Virus record (IMG/VR): IMGVR_UViG_3300037400_002787
Location: 1-64,000 of that record
Source: a virus
Lineage: Duplodnaviria > Heunggongvirae > Uroviricota > Caudoviricetes
Direction: 5' to 3' (one strand)
Length of the DNA: 64,000 nt
The notes under the pieces were generated by a model, which made no database searches, was not told where the DNA came from, and worked only from the letters and a program-made list of their open reading frames with translations. Below are positions 6,528-60,306 of the stretch, one piece after another (positions within the stretch are counted from its first letter, which is position 1; the number at the start of each line of letters is the position of its first letter). A program made the translations under genes and the position numbers.

Positions 6528-6533
6528 GTGAGT

Positions 6534-10366: not shown

Positions 10367-10432
10367 AGACGATTATAGAAAGTGAGCGAGAAAACCCAAT
10401 CCCTTAAGTGTAAAGGCAAGCAAAAAAAATAT

Positions 10433-14510: not shown

Positions 14511-14641
14511 TGCCGCGCGGGAGTGTACCCCCTCCCGCCGTGGCTCTTTTTCGGAACCGAAAACAAACAACAAAAGAGAAAGGAGGATGCGCAATTCCTC
14601 CCAACCCTAAAGGGATTGGGTTCCCTTGCGCATTTTCTATG
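14230..14641 (+). mobile_element. ORF-less IscB-type IS200/605 (HEARO/omega-RNA) element, copy A
   Basis: About 88% identical to the omega-RNA region upstream of iscB at 41664. LE hairpin cccaaccctgaagggttggg (14239-14258), RE hairpin gcgcaattcctcccaaccctaaagggattgggttcccttgcgc (14589-14631). The iscB ORF is replaced by about 80 nt. Ends in tttctATG. Confidence 0.7.
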
Positions 14642-16530: not shown

Positions 16531-16809
16531 TGTCAGCGACCCAACCCTGAAGGGTTGGGCTTGTGGGTGAAAGAGACCGCGAGCCCGCGCTGACTAGGGG
16601 ACTGAAACGAAAGGTAAAACTAAAGTGACAGTAGCAGTTACAGAGGAATGCATAGGCACCTGCGGATGTGAGTCCAAGTCCGCAGCACTGTGGTGTGCGG
16701 TTAAACAGCCCTGCGAGGCAGGGGCAGTGCCGCATGCAAGAAACCCTCTGCAACGCCCCGATGGGCACCTAACCCGCCTTCGGGCGGTGACTTACCCCGC
16801 AAGGGGTCA
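16531..16809 (+). ncRNA. omega-RNA-like structured scaffold (orphan)
   Basis: Homologous to 14230-14510 and 41664-41956. Confidence 0.55.
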
Positions 16810-16940
16810 TGCCACGCGGGAGTGTACCTCCTCCCGCCGTGGCTCTTTTACGAAACCGAGAACAAACAACAAAAGAGAAAGGAGGATGCGCAATTCCTCC
16901 CAACCCTAAAGGGATTGGGTTCCCTTGCGCATTTTCTATG
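16531..16940 (+). mobile_element. ORF-less IscB-type IS200/605 (HEARO/omega-RNA) element, copy B
   Basis: About 93% identical to copy A. Same LE/RE hairpins. Ends tttctATG at 16938-16940. Confidence 0.7.
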
Positions 16941-17156
16941 GCTATCAAGACTACTAAGCGTAAAGTGTCATCGAGGGATAATCCTAAAGTGATGAATTTT
17001 CTTAACATAAACGGAATGACGCTTTCTCTTGGCGACTTGAGGAAGTCTGATTTTTCGGCAGTAGAAGACCCGAAATGTAGTGTAAAGAGTCTTCAGACAT
17101 GGGCGATACAGTTGAATAACATACTCCGCGGTTTTTCGCAGGCGCAGGAGGATTGA
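16938..17156 (+). CDS. hypothetical protein; start codon at the terminus of element copy B
   Basis: ATG 16938 is in frame with ORF 16809-17156. Alternative start 17000. Confidence 0.4.
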   Translation: MAIKTTKRKVSSRDNPKVMNFLNINGMTLSLGDLRKSDFSAVEDPKCSVKSLQTWAIQLNNILRGFSQAQED

Positions 17157-29296: not shown

Positions 29297-30400
29297 ATGA
29301 CTAACTGTTCGGAGTATGTTTCTACAGCTCATAGCGACAAAACGGCTGATGCCATTGCATCTCACCTGCTTGATGAGTACATCAAGCATGACCCCAAGGT
29401 GAGGTTCGCACTTGAGGTTCAGTTGAAAGACCACATCTGCAACCTTGCGGGCGAGGTCACTTCAACTTGGAAGCCATCTGACGATATTATTGCCGAACTT
29501 GTAAGGGGGGCAATCCGCAAGGTGGGCTACACGGCTGAGTATGCCGCCAAGTGGCCTGAAGGTGCAACCCTTAATGCAGACAAGGTTGTTGTAAACAACT
29601 TCATAGGGCAGCAGTCTCCAGACATTGCACAGGGTGTTGATGTTGACGGATGGGGTGATCAAGGTTGCTTCGCGGGAATGGCCACAAACGAAGAGCGGTA
29701 TAATTACCTTCCTCGCGATGTTTACTTCGCCCGTGAGATTGGCAAGCGGCTTTATCGTGCGGCAAAGGCCGGAACCGCTCCCATCGGACTCGACATCAAG
29801 ACCTTGGTTTCTACTACTAATGCACTCAATGTGGAGCAGGTCATAGTAGCGGCCCCGATGTTGCCCGAGAATGAACAGGAAGCAAGGTCTTTCATTGAGA
29901 AGACCGTGAAGGAAGTCCTTGACGAACGGCATCATATCTGCGACGAAATCATCATCAACGGCACAGGGGCTTATGTAGTCCACTCTTCCGTAGGAGATGC
30001 GGGGGTGGTAGGTAGGAAGTTGGCGGTAGACTTCTACGGGCTGAATTGTCCGATAGGTGGAGGCGCAACTTTTGGCAAGGACGGCACAAAGGCAGATGTG
30101 ACATTGAACCTATATGCTAGATATCGGTCACTCAAGACCATTCTCGCTAGGGGAGGAGTGTTCGACAAGGTGTATACGAAGATTGGGTGCTGCATAGGAA
30201 AGAGCAAGTGCCTTCTGTCACAGGAAGATCAAGACCACAAGATGTTTAACCAAGAGGCTGTTGACATCAAGCCGTCAGAGACGGCAAAGTTGTTCGGTCT
30301 TGATGGAAGTGGTCGTGATGATATGTTCTTCCACCTCTGCGAGGACGGACTGTTTTCGTTTGTGGACGAACTTGCCAAGACGGAAGTGGAGAATAACTAA
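29297..30400 (+). CDS. metK: S-adenosylmethionine synthetase (methionine adenosyltransferase)
   Basis: AHSDKTADAIAS (GHPDKxCDQISD), GQQSPDIAQGVD (GKQSPDINQGVD), GWGDQG (GAGDQG), GDAGVVGRKLAVDFYG, GGGATFGKDGTKADV (GGGAFSGKDPSKVDRS). Confidence 0.8.
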   Translation: MTNCSEYVSTAHSDKTADAIASHLLDEYIKHDPKVRFALEVQLKDHICNLAGEVTSTWKPSDDIIAELVRGAIRKVGYTAEYAAKWPEGATLNADKVVVNNFIGQQSPDIAQGVDVDGWGDQGCFAGMATNEERYNYLPRDVYFAREIGKRLYRAAKAGTAPIGLDIKTLVSTTNALNVEQVIVAAPMLPENEQEARSFIEKTVKEVLDERHHICDEIIINGTGAYVVHSSVGDAGVVGRKLAVDFYGLNCPIGGGATFGKDGTKADVTLNLYARYRSLKTILARGGVFDKVYTKIGCCIGKSKCLLSQEDQDHKMFNQEAVDIKPSETAKLFGLDGSGRDDMFFHLCEDGLFSFVDELAKTEVENN

Positions 30401-31799: not shown

Positions 31800-33280
31800 G
31801 CAATAAGTAGATGAAGTCAGACGAGACCAGGAAGTGCGGATGTTCCGCAGAGAGGCGGCAGAAGGTAAAGGAAAGCCGCAAAGCCACCGCCATCAGGAGG
31901 CGGGGGCAGATGGGTTTCGTCTACGAGTGCAAGATAGTGGAGAGTCGGCTCAACAAGAGGCAGATGGAGGAACTTGAGCGGCTTTTCGTGGAGGGGAAGT
32001 GGTTCTACAACCATGTCTTGTCGCTCCATAGGGAAGGTGTGGGGTTGGGGGAGATTAATGCCACTGCCGTCAAGGAGGTGGGAAGGTTTGACAGGAACCA
32101 CGAGAAGAAGACAGAAAAACTTCAAGTGCTGACCGCTCAGGAGCGGCAGGGGATAATCGCCAGAATGGCCGCCAACGAGAAGACGATATCTGCCCTGGCG
32201 AAGAAGGGGTTGCAGGGAGGCGGGGAGTTGCATTTCCTGTCGGAGATGACGTGCATACCGCTGAAGCAGTACGGTGTGACATACAAGTTCAAGACGCCGA
32301 ACAAGGTGCGGATAGGGGGAATTAGCGGGAGTGTGCTGGTGCGGACTGGCGGACAGTTGGAAGGGGTGGACGAACTGGCGAATGCCAACCTCGTGCATAG
32401 GGCGGACGGCTACTTCCTCAAGGTCACGGGCTTCACAAACATAGAGAATCTAAAACAAACGGAAACGAACGGAAAGGAGATAGGGCTTGATTTTGGAATC
32501 AAGACCAGTGTGACGACATCGGAAGGCGAGAAGATTGACGTGCTAGTTGGAGAAAGCGAACGGCTCAAGCGGCTGCAGAAGGAACTATTCCGCAGGGCAA
32601 AGGGTTCGAACAACAGGTACAGGACAATCAAGAGGATTCGCCGCGAATACCAGAGACTGACGAACAGAAAAACCGACATGGCCAACAAAATTGTCTCGAA
32701 ACTGAAGAAATACAACACGATAGTGATGCAGGACGAGATGATTGTCGGGTGGCACAGGGGACTCTTCGGGAAGCAAGTCCAGCACAGTTGTCTAGGAATC
32801 CTGAAAGAAAAACTCATAAGGCTTCCGCAGACGATAGTGCTCGCCCGTGGAATCCCCACGACCAAGATGTGCCCCGTGTGCAAGACCGTGAACAGGTACG
32901 TCACCCTTGCGGACAGGACGTACAGGTGCGGTTGCGGCTACACCCAAGACCGCGACCTCCATGCCGCAAGGAACATGCTCGTCGTCAAGAATATGGTCTT
33001 TGGAAACAATTTGGAAAAACTACCGCTGGGACGGCGGAAAGTCACGCTCACAGAGTTCCGCACCTCTATCGGAGATGTAACAGTCTCCGACAAGCCGGAA
33101 CGCAGAAGTGGGAAGATGCCATGTCTTTAGCATGGCATAGAGTTCACAGCGGATTCTTCTAGAGAAGCAACTTATTGCAATGGATAAATATGCAACTATT
33201 CTTTTCGCTCGCATAAACCTTGCGGTTGGCGAATATTCTAAAAATAGAGACAAGAATCCATTAATGAGGAGTTCACTATG
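31800..33280 (+). mobile_element. IS200/605-family TnpB-only element 1 (boundaries approximate)
   Basis: Contains the tnpB gene. The 3' flank 33131-33277 is non-coding and would carry the omega/reRNA and RE. Confidence 0.5.
31910..33130 (+). CDS. tnpB: TnpB (OMEGA RNA-guided RuvC-like nuclease)
   Basis: RuvC-I IGLDFGIKT, RuvC-II region VMQDEMIV. C-terminal Zn finger plus RuvC-III CPVCKTVNRY...CGCGYTQDRDLHAARNM. Confidence 0.8.
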   Translation: MGFVYECKIVESRLNKRQMEELERLFVEGKWFYNHVLSLHREGVGLGEINATAVKEVGRFDRNHEKKTEKLQVLTAQERQGIIARMAANEKTISALAKKGLQGGGELHFLSEMTCIPLKQYGVTYKFKTPNKVRIGGISGSVLVRTGGQLEGVDELANANLVHRADGYFLKVTGFTNIENLKQTETNGKEIGLDFGIKTSVTTSEGEKIDVLVGESERLKRLQKELFRRAKGSNNRYRTIKRIRREYQRLTNRKTDMANKIVSKLKKYNTIVMQDEMIVGWHRGLFGKQVQHSCLGILKEKLIRLPQTIVLARGIPTTKMCPVCKTVNRYVTLADRTYRCGCGYTQDRDLHAARNMLVVKNMVFGNNLEKLPLGRRKVTLTEFRTSIGDVTVSDKPERRSGKMPCL

Positions 33281-33887: not shown

Positions 33888-34463
33888 ATGCCAAAAAGCA
33901 GGCATAAAATAATAAGTAGAGCGGTAGCGGAAGCTGCCGCAAAGAAGAGGGCGGATGTAGTTGTTACACCGTCCTCTCCTACTCCATACATACCAAAACC
34001 GAAGACAAGAGTAGATGAGATTTACGACCTTATAGAGGAAGCAAGCAATCTGTGGTTTACGGACAAGGACGGAAGACCTTGGATTAACAGAGAGGATATA
34101 GAGGACAAAGGCGGAGGAATTTATGTAGTAAGGTTTAGATGTCCATTGGCTGTCCTTTACACTAGGGTGTCTCTAAATAGAGTTGTAGACAAGGTGTGTG
34201 AAACTCTAAAATCTGAAAAGCGGTATTTCTGCAAAGAAAGCGAGGTTGTCTATTTCAACTCAATCCATCAAAGGTTCTATGAGTGTGTATGGGTGATATG
34301 CGAAGGAGAAGTATCAGAAAAAGATGAAGAAGTAGACTGGGAGGACAATAACTGTGAGTCCTGCATAGACACTCAGGAGGAGATAGATGGCGAACTCACG
34401 GACGAGTCAACAGCCGAAGAGGTCGACTGCCGAATAGATGAAAGTTTGGAAAATTTCGTCTAG
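33888..34463 (+). CDS. hypothetical protein with acidic C-terminus
   Basis: 191-aa ORF. Confidence 0.5.
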   Translation: MPKSRHKIISRAVAEAAAKKRADVVVTPSSPTPYIPKPKTRVDEIYDLIEEASNLWFTDKDGRPWINREDIEDKGGGIYVVRFRCPLAVLYTRVSLNRVVDKVCETLKSEKRYFCKESEVVYFNSIHQRFYECVWVICEGEVSEKDEEVDWEDNNCESCIDTQEEIDGELTDESTAEEVDCRIDESLENFV

Positions 34464-34468
34464 CCCCC

Positions 34469-34498
34469 TTTACAACTGACCATAAGAAATGATATAAT
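34469..34498 (+). promoter_or_regulatory. sigma70-type phage promoter
   Basis: cccccTTTACAactgacca, N, TGATATAAT. Confidence 0.7.
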
Positions 34499-34535
34499 AT
34501 CAACAACTTCAAAGAACAAAAAGGACAAGACGAAA

Positions 34536-35771
34536 ATGAAACTCAATCCGATAATCAATAGCCTACTTGAAACCGACCAGTACAAGTTTTCGATGGGGCA
34601 GACTATCTACCACCAGTTCAACAAGGATGTGACTACCTGGGCTTTCAAGTGTCGTAACAAGAATGTTGTATTCACACCCGAGATGGTGCAGGAGATTCGG
34701 GAGCAGATTGCTCATTTCTGCACCCTTAGGTTCAAGGAGGAAGAACTGGAATGGATGAAGAATACAATTCCTTGGCTTAGCGGTGACTACATTTCGCATC
34801 TCCGTAGGTGGTATCCTAGGCGGGAGCAGATTTTTGTAGACGATGGAGAGATTACACGGAATTGTGAGCCGTGCGGTATGAGAATTACCGCTACAGGAGA
34901 ATGGCTCGACACTTCCATGTACGAGATACCTATTCTCGCTATTGTAAATGAGGTGTATTTCGCTTTCAAGTATGGTGCAGGAGCCCTAAATCGTGCTGCA
35001 CAGGATAGGTTTGAGAAGAAACTGTCCATGATGAAGAATGGATACTATGCCATTGGATGCTTCTCGGAGTTTGGTATGAGGAGAAGGTATTCCGCCCAGA
35101 TGCAGGATTGGATTGTGGGTAGCCTAGCACACTTCGGTACATCTTTCAACACCTTTGTCGGTACTTCCAATGTCTACCTTGCGAAAAAGCACGGAGTCAA
35201 GCCTGTGGGGACGATGGCACATGAGTTTATCCAAGTTGTGGGACAGGCTCACCACGAGCACAATCCCGCCTACTCCAATCACTATATGATGAAGGCTTGG
35301 GTCAAGGAATACGAGACTGATAATGGCATTGCACTCACGGACACCATTACGACAGACTGCTTCCTTCGGGACTTCAACAAGACCTATGCCACACTTTTTA
35401 GCGGTGTGAGGCACGATTCCAACGACCCGTTTGTGTGGGGCGAGAAAATGATTGCTCACTACAAGAAACTTGGCATCGACCCAATGACCAAGACACTCTT
35501 GTTCTCGGATAGCCTTGACTTTAACAAGGCAACACAGATTCGTAATTATTTTAGCGGCAAGGCAAGAGTTGCATTCGGCATCGGGACATACATTGCGAAC
35601 GACACAGGCAAGGAGCCGCTTAATATAGTGATGAAGGTGATAGAAGCGAATGGCTCACCGGTTGCAAAACTTTCCGATATTGATGGCAAGGGTATGTGCC
35701 GTGATATTGCTTATGTAGACTACCTCCGCCGCACAATCGACTGGCGTCTCGCACACGAGAAGGAGGTGTAA
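34536..35771 (+). CDS. pncB: nicotinate phosphoribosyltransferase
   Basis: LLETDQYKFSMGQ (LLDTDAYKLHMQQ), VGTMAHEFIQ, GIALTDTITTDCFLRDF, GVRHDSNDPFVWGEKMIAHYKKLGIDP, NIVMKVIEANGSPVAKLSD. Near colinear with E. coli PncB. Confidence 0.9.
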   Translation: MKLNPIINSLLETDQYKFSMGQTIYHQFNKDVTTWAFKCRNKNVVFTPEMVQEIREQIAHFCTLRFKEEELEWMKNTIPWLSGDYISHLRRWYPRREQIFVDDGEITRNCEPCGMRITATGEWLDTSMYEIPILAIVNEVYFAFKYGAGALNRAAQDRFEKKLSMMKNGYYAIGCFSEFGMRRRYSAQMQDWIVGSLAHFGTSFNTFVGTSNVYLAKKHGVKPVGTMAHEFIQVVGQAHHEHNPAYSNHYMMKAWVKEYETDNGIALTDTITTDCFLRDFNKTYATLFSGVRHDSNDPFVWGEKMIAHYKKLGIDPMTKTLLFSDSLDFNKATQIRNYFSGKARVAFGIGTYIANDTGKEPLNIVMKVIEANGSPVAKLSDIDGKGMCRDIAYVDYLRRTIDWRLAHEKEV

Positions 35772-35825
35772 TAATCTGTTACATAAGTCATAGTCATGGA
35801 TAGTAAATAATCCACAAATTGCCTA

Positions 35826-35853
35826 TTGCATCTTCCACAAAGATATGATACAA
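35826..35853 (+). promoter_or_regulatory. possible promoter for tnpB-2
   Basis: TTGCAT, N16, TGATACAAT. ATG 8 nt downstream. Confidence 0.35.
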
Positions 35854-35861
35854 TACAACCA

Positions 35862-37115
35862 ATGTTGAGAGGAATCCCGATACGTGTGTACCCGAACGAT
35901 GAGCAGAGAGCCTACATAAGTAGGCTCTTGGGCTGTTGTCGTTATGTGTACAACCATCTGCTTGCATTCCAGGAGAAGTTGTTCCTTGAAGAGAAGAGGG
36001 GTGCGAAGCAGTCGGAGATTACAGAATTCTACAATGAAGAGAAAACTCAGAACCAGTTTCTTCGCGAAGTCCACAGCAAAGTGCTTCAACAGTCCCGAAT
36101 AGACTTGCAGACGGCATGGGGAAACTACTTCAAGAGCCTAAAGAAGTCTAGCGGCAAGAAAGCGAACAAACCGATCTACCATAAGAAGGGCATCAAGGAA
36201 TCTTGTAGATTTCCCGTAGATGCTTTCATCGGCATCAGGGGCAACCGAATATCCATCATCAAGCCGTTGCGGGACATGCATTTCAAGTGCAGCAGACGGG
36301 ACGAGCGGTACTTGAACAAACACCAAGACGAAGTGAAGAGCATAACCCTGCGGAAGACGGGCGGTGGTAGGTATTACTGCTCCGTGCTAATAGATGACCG
36401 CCGCATACGGCCGTTGCCAAAGGAAGAGAAAGATGTAGGCATAGACCTAGGTGTGAAGGATTCTGCAATAACATCAGATGGGGACAAGTTCGAGAATCCC
36501 AAGGCATTGGCAAAGGTGGAGAAGCAGATAAAGAGGTGGGAGAGAATCAAGTCCCGTCGAGAGAGGGGAAGCAATAGGCGGAGAATGGCGGTAGCGAGAG
36601 TGTCCCGTCTGCACGAAAGGGCTTCCAACATACGAAAGGATTTCCAGCACAAGGCGACGACCCGAATAGTCCGCGAAAACCAAGCGGTCTATGTCGAAGA
36701 CCTCAATGTGGCTGGTATGATGAAGAACCACAAACTGGCAAAGGCGGTGGCAGATTCCTCTATGAGTGGATTAGTCCGAATGCTGGAGTACAAGTGCAAG
36801 TGGTACGGACGGGAACTGGTGAAGGTTGACAGATGGTATGCCAGCAGCCAGACCTGTTCGTGCTGCGGGTACAAGAACTCCGAGGTGAAGAACCTCAAAG
36901 TCAGGGAGTGGGTATGTCCCAAGTGCGGTAAGCATCACGACCGCGATGTGAATGCGGCTGTGAATGTGCTACATGAGGGGCGGAGAATCAGAGAGAATAA
37001 GGTAGGGCTGAGTTCGCCCGAACCTAACGCTCGTGGACAGGGCAACGGGGGAGTTTCCATGCCGCAAGGTGCGGAGACAGCCGTTCTGGACGAAGCGAGA
37101 AAGGAATGTGCCTAA
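35862..37115 (+). CDS. tnpB: TnpB (OMEGA RNA-guided RuvC-like nuclease)
   Basis: N-terminus [15 protein letters not shown], Ruv[12 protein letters not shown], Ruv[17 protein letters not shown]. Zn finger CSCCGY...CPKCG, Ruv[15 protein letters not shown]. Confidence 0.85.
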
Positions 37116-37289
37116 TGTCTATCAATGACTATAGAACACGGAACTATCAGTTTCTACTGCAAGAAGACAAAGATGGAAAAGTACGAAGATGTGGAACTGA
37201 GGATACTTGGCAAAGGCGAGAAGGACGGACAACCCTTCTACTTCGAAACGGCGCAGACCAGCCTCTGAACCACAAGAAGGAGGTCTAAC

Positions 37290-37844
37290 ATGGGAGAGTG
37301 TACTGATTTCTTTGCACAGAAGAGAAGCCTTCTTGCGAAGCCTGGTGAGGAAGGACAACATGCTTTTTGGGAACATGATATTGGGTTCCTTAATAAGGCA
37401 TTCTGGTTTGATAGATTAATGTGGGATATGCCATCTTCATTGGAAGCCTCTGGAAAGGATAGAAAACTTATCAGGAGCGGCTTACATTCTGATTGTGAAT
37501 CACCACTGACAGTAGATTTCTTGAAGTATGTTATCACGAAACTCCAAGAGATGGACAAGAAGGTTCTCGGGATGCCCTGCGACCCGAAGACCGACCATGC
37601 AAGTTATGAGTTTAATCATAATTGCGATATGGTTTTCAACGGAACTACGAATGGAATAGCCATGATGTCCGCAGTGGCAGAGGTGCTTGGTACCCGATGC
37701 GACATAGATTTCACATACCCTTGGGAAGAAAATCAAGATGAAATAGGGTCGGTTGGAATTCAGCGTATGTTGCAGAGCGTTATTGATAGATACAATGAAT
37801 TGAACAAGGATGGGGATTGGATTTTGTATAAGACTACTGGTTGA
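37290..37844 (+). CDS. hypothetical protein
   Basis: SD aagaaggaggtctaacATG. AT-richer codon usage than neighbours. Confidence 0.5.
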   Translation: MGECTDFFAQKRSLLAKPGEEGQHAFWEHDIGFLNKAFWFDRLMWDMPSSLEASGKDRKLIRSGLHSDCESPLTVDFLKYVITKLQEMDKKVLGMPCDPKTDHASYEFNHNCDMVFNGTTNGIAMMSAVAEVLGTRCDIDFTYPWEENQDEIGSVGIQRMLQSVIDRYNELNKDGDWILYKTTG

Positions 37845-37877
37845 TTGTAAAAATGAGAAAACCGAAGGAAGTCTGAG

Positions 37878-38033
37878 ATGTTAGTGTCAGAACTAATTAG
37901 AAAGTTGGTGAACATTAATCGCCCCGATTCAGAAGTCATTATCGACTCTCGTTCTTGCGGCTATGATTTCGACGAAGTAACGGATGTCAAATCTATGGAT
38001 GTTGTGACCATTTATGGGGAGAAGGAGAATTGA
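37878..38033 (+). CDS. possible small protein (51 aa)
   Basis: SD gaaggaagtctgagATG. Stop couples to the next start (TGATATG). Confidence 0.3.
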   Translation: MLVSELIRKLVNINRPDSEVIIDSRSCGYDFDEVTDVKSMDVVTIYGEKEN

Positions 38034-38034
38034 T

Positions 38035-38571
38035 ATGTTTGTTGGGGGAATTACCAGAGAGTCTCTTGCAAAAGAGGCAAGACGGAAAAAAATGCTAGAG
38101 GAAATAGCACCGGCAAAAGACACACGCCCTTCTTGGAATACCTATTTTCTAAAGCTCGCAAAGGATGTCTCCGAGCGTAGCAACTGCTGCCGCCGCAAGG
38201 TTGGAGCGGTTATCGTCAAGGACAACCACATCATTGCTACGGGTTACAATGGTACACCCGCAGGAACCACCAACTGTTTCGACGGCGGCTGTCCTAGGTG
38301 CAACCACACCCACACAACAGGAGAGAAACTTGATGAGTGTCTTTGTGTTCATGCCGAGCAGAATGCGATATGCCAGGCGGCAAAGCACGGCAATGCCGTT
38401 GACGGAGGGCATATCTACATAACCTGCTCTCCTTGTCTTACCTGCTTGAAGTTGATAATCAATGCTGGCATCAAGAGAGTTGTTTTCAGCGAGTGGTACA
38501 AGCCTTTTAATGAGCAGGAACTAAACCTCATACAAGAAGCGAAACTTGAATATATGGAGTGCGTGAGATGA
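38035..38571 (+). CDS. dCMP deaminase (CDA-fold zinc deaminase)
   Basis: CVHAEQNAI (HAE) and PCLTCLKLIINAGIKRV (PCxxC) zinc-binding motifs. Confidence 0.8.
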   Translation: MFVGGITRESLAKEARRKKMLEEIAPAKDTRPSWNTYFLKLAKDVSERSNCCRRKVGAVIVKDNHIIATGYNGTPAGTTNCFDGGCPRCNHTHTTGEKLDECLCVHAEQNAICQAAKHGNAVDGGHIYITCSPCLTCLKLIINAGIKRVVFSEWYKPFNEQELNLIQEAKLEYMECVR

Positions 38572-39263
38572 CCAATAGACCTGGAATTATGGGGAGTATA
38601 ACTCCCCGCATGGGGATATTCGGAGGAACTTTTTCTCCTTTCACTGTTGCCCATAGAGCGATTGTCAAAGCATTTATAGGCACCTATCGTCTGGATGAAC
38701 TATATATAATTCCTACAATTGTTAATTATCATCGTGAGGGAAAAAACGACTTGCTTCTAGAAACGGACAAGGTGGAAATCATAGAGAGGATGTTAGACAC
38801 ACTCTCGCCGTTCTATCAGAGACGCATTTTTATAGACAAGAGCGAGTTTGCCTATAGAGACCTGTGCCTTGGTATGTCAGACGAGGCTTGGACCACACTT
38901 GTGGACGGACGAAGGTTTATTCATACTCTTCTAGACTTCAATGTGAGACATGGGATAGATAAAGATGTTTCCCGTCCTTATGTCTGTATTGGGACGGACT
39001 CCTTTGAGCATCTTGACCAATGGTATATGAACACGGAGATTGTGAAAATATGCAATCTTGTTGTTGTTCAGGGAAGGAACGATGTGTTTGTTTCCAGACC
39101 CAAAATCCCGCATACCGAATTTAGAATAGCCTATGACTACGAGAAGGTGTCGGCAAGCAAGATACGGGATAAGATGCGATGCCGCAACTGGAGTCACTAC
39201 ATAGCGGATGTCAAGAGACTAGACGAGGGGAAGACAACCCTTGCGGAATTAGGATGGATTTAA
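38568..39263 (+). CDS. nadD: nicotinate/nicotinamide mononucleotide adenylyltransferase (NadD/NMNAT family)
   Basis: GIFGGTFSPFTVAH (FGGTFDPVHYGH), CIGTDSFEHLDQW (IIGqDSL..F..W), VSASKIRDKM (ISAT.IRe.l). ATGA overlap with the upstream gene. Confidence 0.7.
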   Translation: MTNRPGIMGSITPRMGIFGGTFSPFTVAHRAIVKAFIGTYRLDELYIIPTIVNYHREGKNDLLLETDKVEIIERMLDTLSPFYQRRIFIDKSEFAYRDLCLGMSDEAWTTLVDGRRFIHTLLDFNVRHGIDKDVSRPYVCIGTDSFEHLDQWYMNTEIVKICNLVVVQGRNDVFVSRPKIPHTEFRIAYDYEKVSASKIRDKMRCRNWSHYIADVKRLDEGKTTLAELGWI

Positions 39264-39283
39264 CTCACCAAAAAAAACACAAT

Positions 39284-39751
39284 ATGAAATACATAAACCT
39301 CCGAATCAGCCCCAACAACAATAATGTTGAAGTTACCCGCGCCTGTTCGCACGGCGACTGCGACCAGATATTGAAGGGCGACGAGAACTACTGCCCGAAG
39401 TGCGGAAGCCCGTTGAAGAAACTCCCAGACCATCTCGACAAGGAGGCGATTATCGCCCTCGTCAACGAGAACATCGACAAACTGCCGAAGCCGCCAACGG
39501 CGGAATCTAAGGCAAACCTCGACGACCATTGTTCAACCACGGGCGGTATAGACGGACACGATGGGTGGACTGTGACCAACAAAGGAAAAGAGACTACGGA
39601 ATGTCCCTACGGCAAGGGTACTCCCGAAATATGCGGGTTCTGCACAAGCAAAGGCGCTTGCACCATAGGGGTTCTAACCTCGATGCCCCCGCAGTACGAT
39701 ATGTGTCCGTTTCGCGGGTCGGGATTCATTCGCTGCTCGGAAGCCGATTGA
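39284..39751 (+). CDS. Cys-rich zinc-ribbon protein
   Basis: Multiple CxxC pairs (CPKCG, CGFC). Confidence 0.45.
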   Translation: MKYINLRISPNNNNVEVTRACSHGDCDQILKGDENYCPKCGSPLKKLPDHLDKEAIIALVNENIDKLPKPPTAESKANLDDHCSTTGGIDGHDGWTVTNKGKETTECPYGKGTPEICGFCTSKGACTIGVLTSMPPQYDMCPFRGSGFIRCSEAD

Positions 39752-39777
39752 CAAAAACTCCAAAAAGGAACTTAGAA

Positions 39778-41016
39778 ATGGAATCCTACAAATTTAACCC
39801 TGAGCAAGCATTCAACACAATCTCCGACCACTGGAAGAAGTGGGCTACGGCACACGGCATGGAGCAGTGGGTGGTCGGCATCTCCGGCGGAGTTGACAGT
39901 TCCGTGACGGCAGCTCTCGCCGCCAAGATATTTGGCTACGACAATGTACTCGGAGTCCTTATGCCGAATGGAGAGCAGAAAGACATTGAGGACGCCAAGG
40001 ACATTTGCCGACACCTCAAAATAGAGTGGTGTACCGTCAACATCGGGAGGACTTATGAGGAACTTCTTGATGAGGTTGTGTTTGGTGCATTGAGGGCATA
40101 TGGCATCGAGAGGGCTTCTACCGACACCATCACGAATATGCCGGCGAGGTTGAGGATGACTGCCCTGTATGCTATCGCACAATCCACTGCCAGGATGGTT
40201 CTCAACACCTGCAACCTATCTGAGTCCACGGTGGGCTACGATACGCTTTGGGGCGACGATGCCGGTTCCTATGCCCCTATTCAGGGTCTTACAAAGACCG
40301 AGGTGATTGCCCTCGGCGACTGGCTCGGTCTCCCGCACAACTTCACCCACAAGACTCCGATAGATGGCTTGCAGCCCAAGACAGATGAGGAGAAACTCGG
40401 CTTCACCTATGCCGACCTCGACCGCTATATCCGAGAGGACATCGGCACTCCAGAACTCAAGGCGAAGGTCGATGACCTCTATCGCCGCAACAAGTTCAAG
40501 ACCGATATGATTCATATCGACGGACCGAACTTCTATGCACTCGCCAACTTCGTCCGATACAACAACCTGCCCGATGCAGAGAAAACAGTCAAGCAAGCAT
40601 TTGCGGATAATCTCGACATTGTAAGGCTTGAGCCAGAACCACGATACCCGGAGGATGCATGGATCAACGGGGAGAGAGACGACAACGACAATCCGAAGAT
40701 GCCGTTCATGGTTGCCGATGAAAAGGCACAGAACGGCTGGGTGTGGAAACTAGATGTCAACATCAAGACGGGCGAAGTCATCGGATGGCCGAAGGATGTC
40801 AAGGCAGAGGTTCATTACAAGGTTTGCGACTGCTGCCGCATCAAGTATAATGGAGAAGAATACTACGAATATGTACCCGACTTTCTTGAAATAGATGACG
40901 AGGGATATGGAGACTACATTATACTAACAATTGATGATGGCAAAATAGTCAACTGGAGCGAGTCCGACTGCCGTAAGTTCATCAATGATGTTCTCTTCAA
41001 AGACGAGGGAAAGTAA
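39778..41016 (+). CDS. nadE: NH3-dependent NAD+ synthetase with about 140-aa C-terminal extension
   Basis: PP-loop VVGISGGVDSS. GNxxARLRM-like block (PARLRMTALY), ESTVGYDTLWGDDAGSYAPI ([26 protein letters not shown]). Confidence 0.85.
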   Translation: MESYKFNPEQAFNTISDHWKKWATAHGMEQWVVGISGGVDSSVTAALAAKIFGYDNVLGVLMPNGEQKDIEDAKDICRHLKIEWCTVNIGRTYEELLDEVVFGALRAYGIERASTDTITNMPARLRMTALYAIAQSTARMVLNTCNLSESTVGYDTLWGDDAGSYAPIQGLTKTEVIALGDWLGLPHNFTHKTPIDGLQPKTDEEKLGFTYADLDRYIREDIGTPELKAKVDDLYRRNKFKTDMIHIDGPNFYALANFVRYNNLPDAEKTVKQAFADNLDIVRLEPEPRYPEDAWINGERDDNDNPKMPFMVADEKAQNGWVWKLDVNIKTGEVIGWPKDVKAEVHYKVCDCCRIKYNGEEYYEYVPDFLEIDDEGYGDYIILTIDDGKIVNWSESDCRKFINDVLFKDEGK

Positions 41017-41019
41017 GAT

Positions 41020-41388
41020 ATGAGCAATATGCTAGAACAGGTAAAAAGTAGGATAGCAGAGCATCGTTTGGCGGCTGACGACCTAAAGAAGATGTCATTG
41101 CAAAGTGACACTGCTAAAATGTTTAGGGATGCTTTTGTTGAAGAAGAGATGGCAATGGCAGATAAGTTGCAGTCTAAGTTGGAAAAGATTGAGGAAAGTG
41201 AAAGTCCGCAGGGGGTAATCTCTGGCGATAGGAACTGCGATAGATTCAATAGTGGGGATTTGAAAGCTGATTTCAATGCGGCGATTAAGTTTTATATGGA
41301 AGAGACAGGGAAGGTTGTGTACAATGCTTCACCCGGATATAATTCGTCTGGGGATTTCATAATTTGGCTTCTGTCTAGGCAACGTTAG
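41020..41388 (+). CDS. hypothetical protein
   Basis: 122-aa ORF. Confidence 0.5.
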   Translation: MSNMLEQVKSRIAEHRLAADDLKKMSLQSDTAKMFRDAFVEEEMAMADKLQSKLEKIEESESPQGVISGDRNCDRFNSGDLKADFNAAIKFYMEETGKVVYNASPGYNSSGDFIIWLLSRQR

Positions 41389-41392
41389 TAAA

Positions 41393-41683
41393 ATGAGATT
41401 AACAGAACTTACCCCCATATTCGTAGACCAAATCCCCGAAGAACTCGAGGATGGGAAAATATATGTCTGCCGTAAATACAAGACGGCAACACATCTCTGC
41501 GCCTGTGGATGTGGTAAAAAAGTTGTCACACCTTTCAAGGAAGGTTTTTGGACATTGACTACTAATGACATAGATAGCAAGGTGACGATGAGACCGTCTA
41601 TCGGGAACTTTGATATTCCGTGCAAGTCGCACTATTTCCTCACAGACAACAAGGTGGAATGGGTGTCAGTGGTCCGACCCTGA
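41393..41683 (+). CDS. hypothetical zinc-ribbon protein; 3' end and stop lie inside the IscB element left end
   Basis: CACGCGKK motif. Stop codon TGA falls within the LE hairpin ccgaccctgaagggttggg. Confidence 0.45.
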   Translation: MRLTELTPIFVDQIPEELEDGKIYVCRKYKTATHLCACGCGKKVVTPFKEGFWTLTTNDIDSKVTMRPSIGNFDIPCKSHYFLTDNKVEWVSVVRP

Positions 41684-41956
41684 AGGGTTGGGCTTGTAAG
41701 GGGAACCGAACAAGCCTGCGCTGACTAGGGGACTAGAAAGGAAACAGAGAAACAGAAATGATAGTAGCAGTTCAAGAGGAATGCATAGGCACCCGTGGAT
41801 GTTTGTCCAAGTCTGCGGCACTGCGGTGTGTGGTTAAACAAGCCTGCGAGGTAGGGCTAGTGCCACACACGATAAACCCTCTTGAACGCCCCGATGGGCA
41901 CCTAACCTCCCCGCAAGGGGAGTGACTTACCCTGAACAAGGGTCAAACCAAAAGCG
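41664..41956 (+). ncRNA. omega-RNA (HEARO-type) scaffold of IscB
   Basis: Non-coding GC-rich paired region directly upstream of iscB. Conserved in two orphan copies. Confidence 0.6.
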
Positions 41957-43222
41957 ATGACATACATAATAGACAGAGACGGGAAGCCATTGATGCCGAC
42001 GAAGCGCGGCAATATGGTTCGTCATCTGCTGAAGAGCGGTGTCGCCAAGGTGGTTCGTTACGAGCCATTCACGGTGATGATACTGCGCGATGTAGGTCAT
42101 TGCGTCCAAGCGGTGACGCTTGGTGTTGATGTGGGGAGCAGGCACATCGGGCTTTCCGCAACGACTGAAAAGAAGGAACTGTATTCCGCACAGGTGGAAC
42201 TAAGGGACGATGTGTCTAAACTTCTGACGGCTCGCAGGGAGTTTAGGAGGGCAAGGCGAGGACGCAAGCACAACTGGTATCGTCCAGCAAAATGGTCTAA
42301 CAGGGCGAATGAGGAGGGCAATGCCGCTCTTCCGCCGAGCATCAAGCACAAGGCTGAATCGCACATTCGGGCGATACGATTTATATGCAGGATGCTACCT
42401 ATTGGCAAGATAGTGGTGGAGATAGGGAAGTTTGATGTACAGAAATTGAAGAACCCCGAAATCCACAACGAGCAGTACCAACAGGGAACATTGGCAGGCT
42501 GGGAGAACCTGAAAGCCTACGCGAAGTATCGTGATGGCTACAAGTGTCGCGCATGTGGGAAGAGCAAACACAAGGATGGCGCGAGGCTTGAAGTCCACCA
42601 CATCATTCGCAAGGCAGATGGCGGTACGGATGTGCCAGAGAATGTAGTAACCTTGTGCGAGGATTGCCATGCGGCTCACCACAAGGGCGAAAGGAAGTTG
42701 AAGTTCCGCCAAGCGCCACAGCACAAGGCGGAAGCCCACATGAATGCGATGCGGAAGTATCTGATAGATGCTCTTTTCTGGTCTGGCAGGAGAATAGATG
42801 TGACCTACGGCTACAAGACGGCAATGGCACGGAGTGAGCATGGCATAGCGAAGTCTCATGCATCTGATGCATACTGCATAGCAGGGAACTTCAGTGCGGA
42901 GCGGAATGACTATAATATGTATCTTCACAAGTTCGTTCGCCGCCATAACCGTTGTCTACATAAGTTCACTATCTTAAAAGGTGGAATCCGCAAGGCGAAC
43001 CAAGCCCCAAAGTATGTGTTCGGTTTTCGGTTATTTGATTGCGCCCGATACAACGGGCAGGATTGCTTTGTGTTCGGGCGTCGGTCGAGCGGTTCTTTCG
43101 ACATACGGACGCTGGGGGGCAAGAAGATTTCGGCTGGGGTCTCGTACAAGAAGCTCAAGCCACTAACTAAGTCAACAACAATTCTAACAGAAAGGGGGAT
43201 GCGCGATTCCTCCCAACCCTGA
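41957..43222 (+). CDS. iscB: IscB (OMEGA RNA-guided HNH/RuvC nuclease)
   Basis: PLMP domain DGKPLMPT, RuvC-I LGVDVGSRHIGLS, Arg-rich bridge helix RREFRRARRGRKHNWYRPAKW. RuvC-II EIGKFD, HNH CRACGKS...HHIIRKADGGTDVPENVVTLCEDCHAAHH, RuvC-III SHASDAYCIAG. Confidence 0.85.
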   Translation: MTYIIDRDGKPLMPTKRGNMVRHLLKSGVAKVVRYEPFTVMILRDVGHCVQAVTLGVDVGSRHIGLSATTEKKELYSAQVELRDDVSKLLTARREFRRARRGRKHNWYRPAKWSNRANEEGNAALPPSIKHKAESHIRAIRFICRMLPIGKIVVEIGKFDVQKLKNPEIHNEQYQQGTLAGWENLKAYAKYRDGYKCRACGKSKHKDGARLEVHHIIRKADGGTDVPENVVTLCEDCHAAHHKGERKLKFRQAPQHKAEAHMNAMRKYLIDALFWSGRRIDVTYGYKTAMARSEHGIAKSHASDAYCIAGNFSAERNDYNMYLHKFVRRHNRCLHKFTILKGGIRKANQAPKYVFGFRLFDCARYNGQDCFVFGRRSSGSFDIRTLGGKKISAGVSYKKLKPLTKSTTILTERGMRDSSQP

Positions 43223-44636: not shown

Positions 44637-45137
44637 ATGAAAAAGAAGGTCACACGGGAAGAGGTTCTTTCCTCAATCATCAAACTCATCAACGAGCATC
44701 GTGAAGATGTCGTGGAGGAAGATGCATCGCTTGGGCGTTTGCACATTGGTGTCCAGACGCTGATGTGGATGTATGACTGGCTCTGTGAAGAGTATTCCAA
44801 GGTCAATATGGAGCGACCTCTCGAGGAAGAACTGAGGACTCTTGTGCAGGGAGACACGCTTGGAAAACTGGCTGACATTGCCATGGCGCATATCAAGGGC
44901 GATGGTGAATACGAGGTGGAGGAGAAGTCCGATTCGCCCGATGAAAAAGTTTGGAGTGTCTGGATTCAGAAAATAGAAAAGGCAAATTCCTCGGAAGGCG
45001 TGAATGCATTGCGGGGACCAGAGGAGATGACAAAGGCAGAGTTCATGAAACAGTGCGAGGAGTTTTGGGATAACAGGGGGTCGCACTGTGATGACTTTGA
45101 GATTATGTCTATTAGGCTGACTGAGGTGACGGCATGA
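44637..45137 (+). CDS. hypothetical acidic protein
   Basis: SD aacaggagaaacaaaaATG. Confidence 0.5.
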   Translation: MKKKVTREEVLSSIIKLINEHREDVVEEDASLGRLHIGVQTLMWMYDWLCEEYSKVNMERPLEEELRTLVQGDTLGKLADIAMAHIKGDGEYEVEEKSDSPDEKVWSVWIQKIEKANSSEGVNALRGPEEMTKAEFMKQCEEFWDNRGSHCDDFEIMSIRLTEVTA

Positions 45138-45763
45138 GACGAATCTTCATTATCCGCAAAGACCTGCACCTCTCCCCCGGCAAACTCGCCGCTCAAGTGG
45201 GGCATGCGGCTGAACTCTACTGGATCAACATTCTCAAAAATGGCGGCTCTTACACCAACTATAGCAGAGACAATAATCCGACGGCCCAGTCTTTCGAGTT
45301 CTTTGTACCGTATGAAGTCTGGACAGACTACATTAACGGCATATTCACGAAGACCATCTGCGAGTCCCGCAACCTCAACCACCTTCTGAAAGCAAAGGCG
45401 ATAGCCGACGAGTTGGGGTTGAAAGAGAACGAGGACTACGGCTTCATAAACGACAAGTGCCTCACAGAGTTGAAGCCAGAGAACGAGGATGGCACGACTA
45501 CGGTAGGAATGTGGTTTGCACCTCTTGCGGACGAAATCGCCCATAAGATTAGCAAGAAGTTCCCGTTGTTGAAAGACCATGCCGATTTCAGAATCCCTCT
45601 CCGCGACCGAGAATGGACTATCAACTGGCACAAGTGCGGGGATGGGAAGGAATACACTTTTAAGACTCGCTGCCCCACAGAGATTGATGCGTTCAATGCT
45701 TTGCTCCAATCGGAGCCAGGAATGTGTGCTGGAGACATAATAGTTAACAGTCTCTATTCTTAA
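45134..45763 (+). CDS. PTH2-like peptidyl-tRNA hydrolase domain protein
   Basis: RRIFIIRKDLHLSPGKLAAQVGHAA resembles the PTH2 core V.VVR.DL.M..GKiAAQ..HA. Confidence 0.5.
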   Translation: MRRIFIIRKDLHLSPGKLAAQVGHAAELYWINILKNGGSYTNYSRDNNPTAQSFEFFVPYEVWTDYINGIFTKTICESRNLNHLLKAKAIADELGLKENEDYGFINDKCLTELKPENEDGTTTVGMWFAPLADEIAHKISKKFPLLKDHADFRIPLRDREWTINWHKCGDGKEYTFKTRCPTEIDAFNALLQSEPGMCAGDIIVNSLYS

Positions 45764-46200
45764 TGGAAAAAGCGAGAAAGGAAATGAACATGAAAAAAGC
45801 GAAAAAAGGAAAAGCGAAGCCAGATTCTACTAACAATCTTGGAAAGGTGGCTTTCGGGATGATGTCTTGCGCTGCTTCGGCGGCACTGGAAGACATTGAA
45901 GCGGGAGAGGGCAAAATGAAGAACACGCTCGCCAATCATTTCACGCGAGATTTCTTCTGCTCAGAGAAATATCACCGTGCTTGGTTGAAAGCCCTTCGCA
46001 AGGCAGTCAAGGAGTTTGCCAAAAACGACAAATCCGAAGGTGGGTCGCGAACGCGAAACCAGTTAAATGCAATTTACGATAGACGCGAGAAAGAGTTAAT
46101 CAACTTGAGTTGTAAAGACATCATGCGATTCGGGACGGTCAGGCGGTGGCTAAAAGAATTGCGCGACCTCTTCAGGGAACTCAATATTGAATTGACATGA
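45763..46200 (+). CDS. hypothetical protein
   Basis: TAATG overlap with the upstream gene. Confidence 0.45.
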   Translation: MEKARKEMNMKKAKKGKAKPDSTNNLGKVAFGMMSCAASAALEDIEAGEGKMKNTLANHFTRDFFCSEKYHRAWLKALRKAVKEFAKNDKSEGGSRTRNQLNAIYDRREKELINLSCKDIMRFGTVRRWLKELRDLFRELNIELT

Positions 46201-46856
46201 AGAAAATCCCCACCCTCTTTAAGCGTGTCTTCACTGAAGACCACCAGAAGACTATCACCCGCGAAGTCACGCCCGGATGCGAGTGTGTTCTTCGTGGTGA
46301 GTGTACTGCAACGGTAAAGTGGGATGGTGCCTGCTGTGCTATAATCAACGGAGAGATATGGAAGCGGTACGATGCCAAGCATGGTAAGAAGCCCCCCGAG
46401 GGTGCGATACCATGTCAGCCTGAGCCAGACCCTATTACGACACATTGGCCGCATTGGGTGAAGTGCGACCCCGCCAACCCCGCAGACAAATACTTCTTGG
46501 AGGCATATCGCCACTTCCAGCAGTTCCCATTGTTGTCGATTAATAATGCCCAGCCATATAATCTTGGGGCTTTTGACGGCACCTACGAGGCCGTAGGACC
46601 TGCATGGCAATCTAACCCATACGGACTTGCTCGGAATACCCTACATCGCCACGGCGATGACTTCATAGGCGACCTCTGGCTCCGTGATGACGGGAAGCCA
46701 GACACCTTCGCCTACAACAAGATTCGCGGATATTTGGAGACCCACGAAATCGAGGGGATAGTGTTTTGGCTCGACGGACAGCCCCTCTGCAAAATCAAGC
46801 GCAGCGACTTCGGGTTTGAGTGGCCTGTTAAATCAAATAAATCAAAGGAGGCTTAA
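46197..46856 (+). CDS. small nucleotidyltransferase-like protein with KxDG motif (putative RNA ligase family)
   Basis: TATVKWDGACCAI (motif I KxDG). About 220 aa, consistent with the minimal RNA_ligase (DRB0094-like) family. Confidence 0.4.
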   Translation: MKKIPTLFKRVFTEDHQKTITREVTPGCECVLRGECTATVKWDGACCAIINGEIWKRYDAKHGKKPPEGAIPCQPEPDPITTHWPHWVKCDPANPADKYFLEAYRHFQQFPLLSINNAQPYNLGAFDGTYEAVGPAWQSNPYGLARNTLHRHGDDFIGDLWLRDDGKPDTFAYNKIRGYLETHEIEGIVFWLDGQPLCKIKRSDFGFEWPVKSNKSKEA

Positions 46857-49054: not shown

Positions 49055-49600
49055 ATGAGCAAGAAGGTAATAGTTGTAGTTGATGTACAGAATGATTTTG
49101 TGAAGGGTGGAGTGCTCCCTTACGGCTACCCACAGAAGGATATTGTTGGGGATGTCTGCGATTATGTCCGTAAGGCAAGCTCTGAGGGGCATCGCATTAT
49201 TGCCACACGTGATACTCATCACGACAACTATTTAGAGACATTGGAGGGCAAGAACCTTCCGGTCAAGCACTGCATTCACGATACTCACGGATGGTCACTT
49301 GTTCCCGACCTTAACGAAATGTATGCGGCGGGGAAGTTGACCGTGTTCGATAAGCCAACCTTTGGCACTCCTCTGGTTGGGGAGTATGTCCGTGGCATTA
49401 TAGAGAGTGAGACGATAGATGAGATTGAACTCATTGGATTCGACCTCTCTATCTGTGTGCTTGCAAATGCCGTGCTTCTTCGTTCAAGATTCCCAAATAT
49501 GCCCATCACCGTTCGTATGGACCTCTGTGGAGATGTTGACAAGAAGAGTTTCAAGGCAGCCTGCGAGGTGCTCCATAACCAGCAGATTCGGGTCTGCTAA
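49055..49600 (+). CDS. pncA: nicotinamidase (isochorismatase-family cysteine hydrolase)
   Basis: VVVDVQNDF (VDLQNDF), THHDNY (WHPANH metal site), VKHCIHDTHG (WPDHCVQ), FDK (catalytic Lys), IGFDLSICV (MGLATDYCV, catalytic Cys). Confidence 0.7.
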   Translation: MSKKVIVVVDVQNDFVKGGVLPYGYPQKDIVGDVCDYVRKASSEGHRIIATRDTHHDNYLETLEGKNLPVKHCIHDTHGWSLVPDLNEMYAAGKLTVFDKPTFGTPLVGEYVRGIIESETIDEIELIGFDLSICVLANAVLLRSRFPNMPITVRMDLCGDVDKKSFKAACEVLHNQQIRVC

Positions 49601-60243: not shown

Positions 60244-60306
60244 ATACAACCGAAGATTGAAGAGGTGTCCGAAGTTTTGGTTAACCAAAAAAAAGAAAGA
60301 ACAAAA

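Follow-up and report, generated by a model that had tools for sequence, protein, structure and literature searches.

A deamidating route of four enzymes from nicotinamide to NAD+ predicted in a probable large phage, and its possible part in tolerance of NAD+ depletion

Genes of the predicted salvage route

The 64,000-nucleotide stretch analysed here (the window) covers positions 1 to 64,000 of the IMG/VR virus record IMGVR_UViG_3300037400_002787 (Caudoviricetes) and carries genes for PncA-, PncB-, NadD- and NadE-type enzymes, which together are predicted to form a deamidating salvage route from nicotinamide to nicotinamide adenine dinucleotide (NAD+). The four open reading frames (ORFs), together with a NUDIX hydrolase, had been proposed in an initial annotation, which placed the set at 34536-41016 and read it as a candidate counter to NAD-depleting immunity. 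The ORFs of the four enzymes are all where they had been proposed, on the + strand and with zero internal stops; the gene for PncA (49055-49600) falls outside the span given for the set. All four enzyme families are present in the window, and the route is complete on paper. The features concerned are the following.

34536-35771, + strand: PncB, nicotinate phosphoribosyltransferase of the ATP-coupled type, predicted to convert nicotinate and phosphoribosyl pyrophosphate (PRPP) to nicotinate mononucleotide (NaMN); profiles and motifs
38568-39263, + strand: NadD-type nicotinate/nicotinamide mononucleotide adenylyltransferase, predicted to convert NaMN and ATP to nicotinate adenine dinucleotide (NaAD); motifs, fold and structure matches
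39778-40572, + strand: core of NadE, NH3-dependent NAD+ synthetase, predicted to convert NaAD, NH3 and ATP to NAD+; profiles and PP-loop
40573-41016, + strand: domain X, an in-frame extension of the NadE core that makes up the last 147 residues of the ORF 39778-41016
49055-49600, + strand: PncA-type nicotinamidase, predicted to convert nicotinamide to nicotinate and NH3; PF00857, structure matches and residues
28058-28720, + strand: NUDIX hydrolase of the NadM-Nudix/NrtR (ADP-ribose-type) branch; PF00293, 70 bits

The four family assignments hold on profile searches, PncB and NadE scoring above the curated cut-offs and NadD and PncA below them, and the catalytic residues are conserved in all four proteins on alignment.

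PncB and the NadD-type adenylyltransferase

PncB exceeds the curated whole-protein cut-offs of NF003704 (467 bits, cut-off 379) and TIGR01514 (413 bits, cut-off 269.6) and carries both Pfam domains of the family, NAPRTase_N (PF17767) and NAPRTase (PF04095). It aligns end to end with PncB2 of P. aeruginosa (1YIR, E 4e-86), the phospho-histidine motif GTMAHEF being aligned to GTMAHEW of 1YIR, and the motifs RHDS(N)DP and FGIGT are kept. Identity to the syntenic phage relatives described below is 59-79%. None of the closest 120 PncB homologues falls below 61% identity, and each of them comes from a metagenomic contig no longer than about 320 kb, a pattern which points to a long-standing phage gene family and not a recent capture from a host.

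The adenylyltransferase matches PF01467 with 37 bits (cut-off 21) and was filed as NadD-type, not as an equivalog, because it stays below every NadD equivalog cut-off; judged by sequence, it is the weakest link of the four. All of its sequence matches to solved structures (11 of 11) are NadD proteins, and it has the nucleotidyltransferase motifs GGTFSPFTVAH and VSASKIR. The residues G19, H29, K59, S195 and R200 are invariant across the phage clade of 35 NadD-type sequences. An AlphaFold2 model (predicted local distance difference test score 89) was compared to solved structures with Foldseek, and the top 50 PDB matches were all NadD of bacterial or Plasmodium origin, the best being 3E27 (E 7e-11), with a probability of 1.00 and template modelling scores of 0.6-0.8 normalised to the target. 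On the model, the fold can be assigned with confidence to NadD, as distinct from the nicotinamide mononucleotide adenylyltransferases (NMNAT) of the NadM/NadR type. A protein 100% identical to this one has been named NaMN adenylyltransferase by JGI.

NadE and its fused C-terminal domain

The NadE protein passes TIGR00552 with 165.8 bits (cut-off 63.65) and matches PF02540 with 167 bits, and the PP-loop GISGGVDSS occupies residues 35-43. Its best PDB matches are NH3-dependent NAD synthetases, 2E18 (5e-34, 121 bits) and 3FIU (3e-29, 105 bits). No glutaminase (CN-hydrolase) domain was found in the NadE ORF, for which Pfam gives only PF02540 at residues 15-241, and the lack of this domain indicates an enzyme of the ammonia-dependent type. 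The initial annotation had taken the whole ORF 39778-41016 for NadE; the NH3-type core with its PP-loop stands, while homology to NadE is confined to residues 1 to about 265, and residues 266-412 form an unrelated fused domain, here called domain X.

The fusion of domain X to NadE was seen in this window only. All of the relatives have a NadE of 266-271 amino acids with a separate gene of 185-213 amino acids next to it on the downstream side; by this comparison the window has lost the stop codon and the N-terminal 50-80 residues of the downstream gene, from which the in-frame fusion resulted. Domain X has 253 homologues and matches zero Pfam families; it is widespread among phage proteins and recognisable by HYKVCDCC...GYGDYII as its signature, and its AlphaFold2 model is confident, with zero annotated structural neighbours in PDB or BFVD. 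Among the relatives it is found in L012 (10001-10558) and L013 (10001-10642), and in the viral contig L005 (9506-10408) it is fused to a Tad2-like domain. Domain X, whose fusion partners are NadE here and Tad2 elsewhere, may be a new accessory factor.

The PncA-type nicotinamidase

The PncA-type protein matches the isochorismatase family PF00857 with 67.8 bits (cut-off 27), and its best PDB matches are all nicotinamidases (1ILW, 3e-15; 2H0R; 3PL1). The catalytic Asp-Lys-Cys triad that had been proposed for it is present as D10, K100 and C134, is invariant in 7 phage homologues and aligns to D10, K94 and C133 of P. horikoshii PncA, the register of K94/K100 being ambiguous in the pairwise alignment. 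The HxxH metal site proposed along with it has to be replaced by the canonical D-x-H plus a later H, since the ligands present are D53, H55 and H72, likewise invariant in the 7 homologues and aligned to D52, H54 and H71 of 1ILW. To our knowledge, such an Asp/His/His metal site is characteristic of nicotinamidases, and the other isochorismatase-like hydrolases lack it.

With NF008623, the PncA equivalog, the protein scores 25.1 bits for a cut-off of 174, and because of this it was filed as PncA-type, in a diverged phage clade. The score also leaves room for the protein being some other amidohydrolase of the isochorismatase family, in which case the phage would follow the Preiss-Handler pathway from nicotinate only and nicotinamide released by NADases would be unusable for it. 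A similarly weak score was obtained with a biuret amidohydrolase, and the PHROG family of the protein is labelled 'unknown function'. We regard this as quite improbable, given that the best solved relatives are all nicotinamidases with an invariant D/H/H metal site, that the gene lies immediately beside nadE or pncB in other phages (dozens of contigs), and that the corresponding protein of Phage Phass-1 is annotated as a nicotinamidase. The NadD-type and PncA-type assignments thus rest on motifs, matches to solved structures and genomic context, to which the fold match is added for NadD.

The NUDIX partner

The NUDIX hydrolase at 28058, like the two Tad2-like genes that had been placed at 1929 and 3070, was borne out by its profile score, and its Nudix box (GGx5Ex7REx2EExG) is intact. 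In NCBIfam it best matches NrtR and the Nudix portion of bifunctional NMNAT/Nudix proteins, its PDB match is 2QJT, the NadM-Nudix protein of Francisella (E 7e-10), and the gene is syntenic in L001, the closest IMG/VR relative. NadD::Nudix fusions with a C-terminal Nudix domain (about 380 amino acids) are found in L004 (6246-7328) and in about 25 metagenomic proteins (P0145-P0168); this arrangement parallels NadM-Nudix, but on a NadD scaffold. The fusions tie the NUDIX to the NAD module, and as the protein belongs to the ADP-ribose/NadM-Nudix branch and is elsewhere fused to this same NadD clade, it may process ADP-ribose, as an accessory which handles that half of the cleaved NAD+.

The resemblance to Francisella raises the question of whether the steps follow the order known from that genus, with NadE acting as a nicotinamide mononucleotide (NMN) synthetase that converts NaMN to NMN, and the adenylyltransferase then converting NMN to NAD+ without NaAD. 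Among the solved relatives of the phage NadE, the NadE* of Francisella (3FIU, 105 bits) comes second after 2E18 (121 bits), the NUDIX of the phage is similar to the Nudix half of 2QJT, and fusions to Nudix, known from NadM, are frequent in the phage adenylyltransferase clade. The adenylyltransferase, however, is NadD and not NadM in both fold and sequence, and the compact operons described below follow the classical PncA-PncB-NadD-NadE order, so that the Francisella-like order appears unlikely.

Gene arrangement and conservation across phages

The four genes are spread over 15 kb of the window, with mobile and variable cargo between them. The gap between pncB and nadD holds a TnpB gene, an ORFan and a dCMP (deoxycytidine monophosphate) deaminase gene, the gap between nadD and nadE a Cys-rich ORF, and the 8 kb between nadE and pncA a DUF6527 gene, a HEARO RNA with IscB and other cargo. 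In L001 the spacing between pncB and nadD is just 30 bp. The order (NUDIX, MetK ...) PncB ... NadD ... NadE, domain X ... PncA, C1 peptidase, DnaB is shared by at least five related contigs; the syntenic set includes IMGVR_UViG_3300021255_005874 (223 kb), IMGVR_UViG_3300032030_001295 (30 kb), a 274-kb contig of GCA_017633015.1 binned as Prevotella sp., and several ENA and Logan contigs. The four genes of these syntenic relatives have 37-79% amino-acid identity to those of the window. L004, a more distant viral contig of 210 kb, carries PncB, the NadD::Nudix fusion and PncA adjoining NadE, and PncA also directly adjoins NadE in MT835544.

A profile of the phage PncA was run against IMG/VR, which gave 436 relatives, and the best 80 were examined, each with 10 kb of flanking sequence. 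At least 12 of these best 80 of 436 loci carry a contiguous PncA-PncB-NadD-NadE operon in the order of the pathway (L054, L046, L048, L050, L052, L063, L064, L068, L070, L074, L083 and L088), on contigs of up to 186 kb. The operon of L054 (10001-13165) was checked and gave 484 bits for PncB, 106 for NadD and 169 for NadE. The arrangement NUDIX-PncA-(weak NadD)-PncB-NadE was found in 4 more of the best 80, and another 29-32 carry PncA and NadE together with a Prs-like and a NAMPT-like gene, sometimes with a macro domain. A database survey for the co-occurring set, suggested along with the initial annotation, yields the compact operon in at least 12 IMG/VR contigs in addition to the syntenic relatives. 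Because synteny is found in independent relatives and contiguous operons elsewhere, the linkage of the four genes is selected and exceeds what chance would give.

L013 carries, between pncB and nadD (6202-6807), a Tpt1/KptA-type RNA 2'-phosphotransferase (PF01885), an NAD+ consumer which releases nicotinamide. No homologues of Tpt1 or of the Prs-like, NAMPT-like and macro proteins were found in the window by tblastn, the queries for the last three being taken from L024 and Phage Phass-1.

Probable phage origin of the window and neighbouring cargo

The genes of the window form an array on one strand in which ORFans are in the majority. The recognisable content is of phage type, with two Tad2-like genes, RusA, dUTPase, DnaB, DnaN, RNA ligases and homing-type elements. 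Relatives and gene content point to a phage origin. With respect to the limit of 200 kb that applies to the NAD-jumbo phages with pncB, nadD and nadE discussed below, an identical NadD (100%) is found on a 96.6-kb JGI contig, and the syntenic relatives reach 210-274 kb. The source is probably a large gut or rumen phage, and probably a jumbo phage. Searches for a closer placement returned little, an INPHARED search for near-identical DNA with 34000-42000 giving zero matches, exact-protein look-ups giving zero records for PncB and only a 1.9-kb Logan contig for NadD, and the DnaB-like helicase of the window, used as a taxonomic marker, giving matches that are all below 31% identity.

Capsid, portal and terminase were not found in profile scans of the window ORFs, and PHROGs gave no structural-gene call on 10 large unannotated ORFs of the window. 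If the window were bacterial or other mobile-element DNA, the four genes would be ordinary host salvage genes, and it fits with this that one of the syntenic contigs is binned as Prevotella sp. The syntenic relatives are, however, IMG/VR viral contigs of 210-223 kb, the single-strand array of mostly ORFans has phage-type content, NadD and PncA are distant from the bacterial equivalogs, and the relatives of PncB are confined to contigs of at most about 320 kb, all of which makes a non-phage source very improbable.

The genes that separate the members of the route and the two Tad2-like genes are as follows.

35826-37115, + strand: TnpB, IS200/IS605-type RNA-guided nuclease (NF040570, 328 bits, cut-off 100); variable cargo between pncB and nadD, outside the pathway
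38014-38571, + strand: dCMP/cytidine deaminase (PF00383, 96 bits); cargo between pncB and nadD
39284-39751, + strand: Cys-rich zinc-ribbon ORF with a weak Zn_Ribbon_1 match, between nadD and nadE; a weak homologue lies elsewhere in L013
1929-2225, + strand: Tad2-like protein, DUF2829 (PF11195, 62.2 bits, cut-off 25); a context of Thoeris evasion
3010-3381, + strand: second Tad2-like protein (PF11195, 69.5 bits, cut-off 25), the start being possibly the ATG near 3070

Two TnpB genes, at 31811-33130 and 35826-37115, have a mutual identity of 28% and lie in variable islands flanking pncB on both sides; in L012 a TnpB is found upstream as well. The IscB omega-RNA HEARO (RF02033) is present in three copies of 113-118 bits (14231-14474, 16532-16773 and 41665-41906), of which the third alone has a recognisable IscB behind it (RRXRR and HNH, 41957-43222); directly upstream of this unit lies the DUF6527 protein (41393-41683, 74 bits). 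The ORFs behind the first two copies (14510-15310 and 16809-17156) have zero Pfam matches, and the first of them showed no similarity to IscB on comparison. The gaps between the conserved backbone genes of this lineage seem to be populated by RNA-guided nucleases.

An ART-PolyVal ADP-ribosyltransferase domain lies in a 655-amino-acid protein (61542-63509), a candidate NAD-consuming enzyme of the phage. The region 9761-11224 encodes a P-loop kinase of the AAA_28 type (PHROG 'thymidylate kinase') and, behind it, a calcineurin-like metallophosphoesterase; the kinase (9761-10366) was considered as a nicotinamide-riboside kinase of the NadR type and dropped, as it has zero NCBIfam or PDB matches and the PHROG label is the one given. 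The product of orf48184, which always lies just upstream of PncA, was likewise considered as a member of the pathway and dropped, its sequence being nuclease- or coiled-coil-like and having no link to NAD. Further cargo is found at 697-1926, 3420-5030, 12363-13151, 29297-30400, 45134-45763, 46197-46856 and 60265-61407; these seven loci encode an RNA ligase with a PHA02142 OB domain, an SPFH/flotillin protein, a caspase-like C14 peptidase, a diverged S-adenosylmethionine synthetase, a PTH2 peptidyl-tRNA hydrolase, an RLIG1-like ligase and the DnaN sliding clamp.

The predicted route

In the route as we infer it from the enzyme families and their arrangement, which concerns the substrates, the order of the steps and the coupling through ammonia, PncA would hydrolyse nicotinamide to nicotinate and NH3, PncB would couple nicotinate and PRPP to NaMN, the NadD-type enzyme would convert NaMN and ATP to NaAD, and the single-domain NH3-dependent NadE would convert NaAD, NH3 and ATP to NAD+. 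NadE may reuse the NH3 released by PncA; the adjacency of PncA and NadE in several phages, together with a NadE of the ammonia-only type, is consistent with such a hand-over. The ADP-ribose-type NUDIX may dispose of the ADP-ribose half or recycle it. This four-step biochemistry, read from the sequences, is the part of the interpretation that we consider most secure, and it is probable.

Comparison with known systems

Phage pathways for rebuilding NAD+ have been described in several forms. NARP1 consists of Adps and Namat and NARP2 of Nampt and Nmnat, both of which experimentally beat NADase defences (Osterman et al. 2024, 10.1101/2024.02.11.579819); NARP3 combines a PnuC-like transporter with a NadR-like enzyme and counters Sir2-HerA (PMC13464706); and NARP1-AP is NARP1 with the macro-domain phosphatase Adpp (10.64898/2026.01.28.702374). 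None of the four uses PncA, PncB or NadE (10.1101/2024.02.11.579819, PMC13464706, 10.64898/2026.01.28.702374). The initial annotation had counted the route as a third solution, a count overtaken by the publication of NARP3 in 2026 (PMC13464706), so that it would be a fourth at best.

NARP2 also leads from nicotinamide and PRPP to NAD+, and there too the phosphoribosyltransferase belongs to the NAPRTase/NAMPT superfamily and the adenylyltransferase has a HIGH motif. NARP2, however, takes two amidated steps via NMN and is experimentally proven, whereas the route in the window is predicted and would take four steps via nicotinate, NaMN and NaAD, the amide being removed and later restored, at the cost of more ATP. 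No Nampt was found in the window, where the sole phosphoribosyltransferase is the PncB equivalog and no NAMPT-like match was given by tblastn.

With NARP1 and NARP1-AP the route shares the goal of rebuilding NAD+ from the products of NADases, and homologues of the PncA and NadE of the window flank operons with Prs-like and NAMPT-like genes (and macro) in many viral contigs. NARP1 differs in reusing ADP-ribose directly via ADP-ribose pyrophosphate (ADPR-PP), while in the window the NUDIX could do no more than degrade ADP-ribose. Loci of this combined kind are L024 (10001-14105) and that of Phage Phass-1 from the human gut (L017, OQ749652.1; 96860-101298), the macro domain being sometimes DarG-like. 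By gene content these loci look like NARP1/NARP1-AP operons with a deamidase and an amidase added, of which there is no mention in the NARP papers cited here, and the flanking phage-type PncA and NadE may mark a deamidated version of NARP1. NARP3 likewise restores NAD+ by means of phage-encoded proteins, but it imports external nicotinamide riboside and uses kinase and adenylyltransferase chemistry; no matches to the PnuC or NadR families were found among the window ORFs that were scanned with profiles.

Jumbo phages with complete Preiss-Handler pathways, for example Kuafu_71 with pncB-nadD-nadE, have been described in connection with NAD 'synthesis and utilisation' by Li et al. (Microbiome 2024, PMC11662467), where phage pncA is mentioned in the discussion. 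These too are large gut or rumen phages in which pncB, nadD and nadE occur together with NAD-consuming genes. That work is bioinformatic; it treats the genes as a means of making NAD+ from nicotinate and does not read them as a counter-defence that recycles nicotinamide. In the present analysis PncA belongs to the module as a conserved component, which stands in operon order in other phages, whereas the window has its genes dispersed and an extra domain on its NadE. The deamidating salvage of bacteria, yeast and plants (PMC9316036) has the same enzyme families and predicted chemistry, and PncB even passes the bacterial equivalog cut-off. It differs from the set described here, which is virus-encoded, with NadD and PncA in strongly diverged phage clades, a short NH3-only NadE and NUDIX partners, some of them fused to NadD.

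The gene set itself is hence not new; what is new is the explicit reading as nicotinamide recycling and the operon form in many phages. In the literature searched, no paper was found that tests a PncA route against NADase defences. The set is one more of the phage NAD+ synthesis modules already known as a class, and it can reasonably be considered a candidate for a fourth pathway of NAD+ reconstitution. The stronger proposal, that PncA-PncB-NadD-NadE with the ADP-ribose-type NUDIX makes up a fourth and chemically distinct pathway, with transfer of NH3 from PncA to NadE, is put forward tentatively, as we hold it to be somewhat more doubtful than not.

Function: counter-defence or self-supply

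Nicotinamide is released alike by NADases of the TIR, SIR2 and SEFIR types and by the enzymes with which the phage itself consumes NAD, and its recycling, with the genes presumably expressed during infection, would keep NAD+ available. The likeliest selective benefit would be tolerance of NAD+ depletion, including that imposed by host immunity. This whole reading, in which the phage encodes the four-step deamidating salvage, maintains its NAD+ with it and so tolerates depletion, is given a probability of roughly 0.6. A role in counter-defence is made plausible by the fact that NARP1, NARP2 and NARP3 experimentally defeat NADase defences. In favour of it are also the two Tad2-like genes in the window, the domain X-Tad2 fusion in L005, and the same PncA and NadE families accompanying NARP1-like operons in other contigs. 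A measurable counter-defence effect is close to an even matter, inclining slightly towards doubt. Being independent of ADP-ribose, the route would also work against defences that spoil ADP-ribose, such as aRES.

Several points weigh against this reading. Dispersal of the four genes and their interruption by TnpB and IscB islands mean that co-regulation is not evident in the window, and the profile scans of its ORFs found no capsid, portal or terminase. The adenylyltransferase reaches 63.3 bits with TIGR00482, the cut-off being 112.45, and is likewise below the other NadD equivalogs; it has TVAH (Gly to Ala) instead of the canonical HxGH, though some members of its clade retain HVGH. The PncA-type protein, as given above, is also below its equivalog cut-off. 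Nicotinamide inhibits SIR2-type enzymes, as is known from sirtuin biology, and its removal by PncA could free a SIR2 NADase from this inhibition. The four steps of the route consume more ATP than Nampt and NMNAT do (PMC9316036), for which reason it looks poor as an emergency response. Finally, with NAD consumers such as ART-PolyVal in the window and Tpt1/KptA in L013, self-supply would suffice as a benefit without any immunity, and a supply of NAD+ for these enzymes is as live a reading as counter-defence.

The last two points lead to a module that is purely auxiliary-metabolic, with no specific role against immunity, which would raise or maintain NAD+ for replication and for the phage's own NAD consumers (ADP-ribosyltransferases, Tpt1-type RNA repair, NAD-dependent ligases) and may in addition make up for niacin salvage that is missing in the host. 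The window has RNA-repair genes besides the ART-PolyVal protein, the Tpt1/KptA of L013 lies inside the module itself, enzymes of this kind release nicotinamide, and a costly four-step route fits a steady supply better than an emergency rescue. Yet phage NAD+ synthesis does counter NADase defences in the case of NARP1, NARP2 and NARP3, Tad2-like genes share the window, and phage-type PncA and NadE flank NARP1-like operons, with an anti-aRES macro domain, in the 29-32 of 80 viral contigs mentioned above. A purely metabolic role is in our view rather unlikely, the chances being about one third of those against it. It is compatible with counter-defence, the two not being mutually exclusive.

Significance

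NAD+ depletion is among the commonest outcomes of bacterial anti-phage immunity, and each of the three phage pathways proven to rebuild NAD+ has revealed novel enzymology and a further layer of the arms race. If the reading of nicotinamide recycling is true, the route described here would be the first to use nicotinamide alone via NaMN and NaAD, indifferent to the fate of the ADP-ribose moiety. The compact four-gene operon found in many uncultured large phages would then be a marker for phages likely to be resistant to NADase defences, which could be of value when therapeutic phages against gut Bacteroidota are selected or engineered. Should the module be only a metabolic booster, it would still document how fully giant phages duplicate the cofactor metabolism of their hosts.

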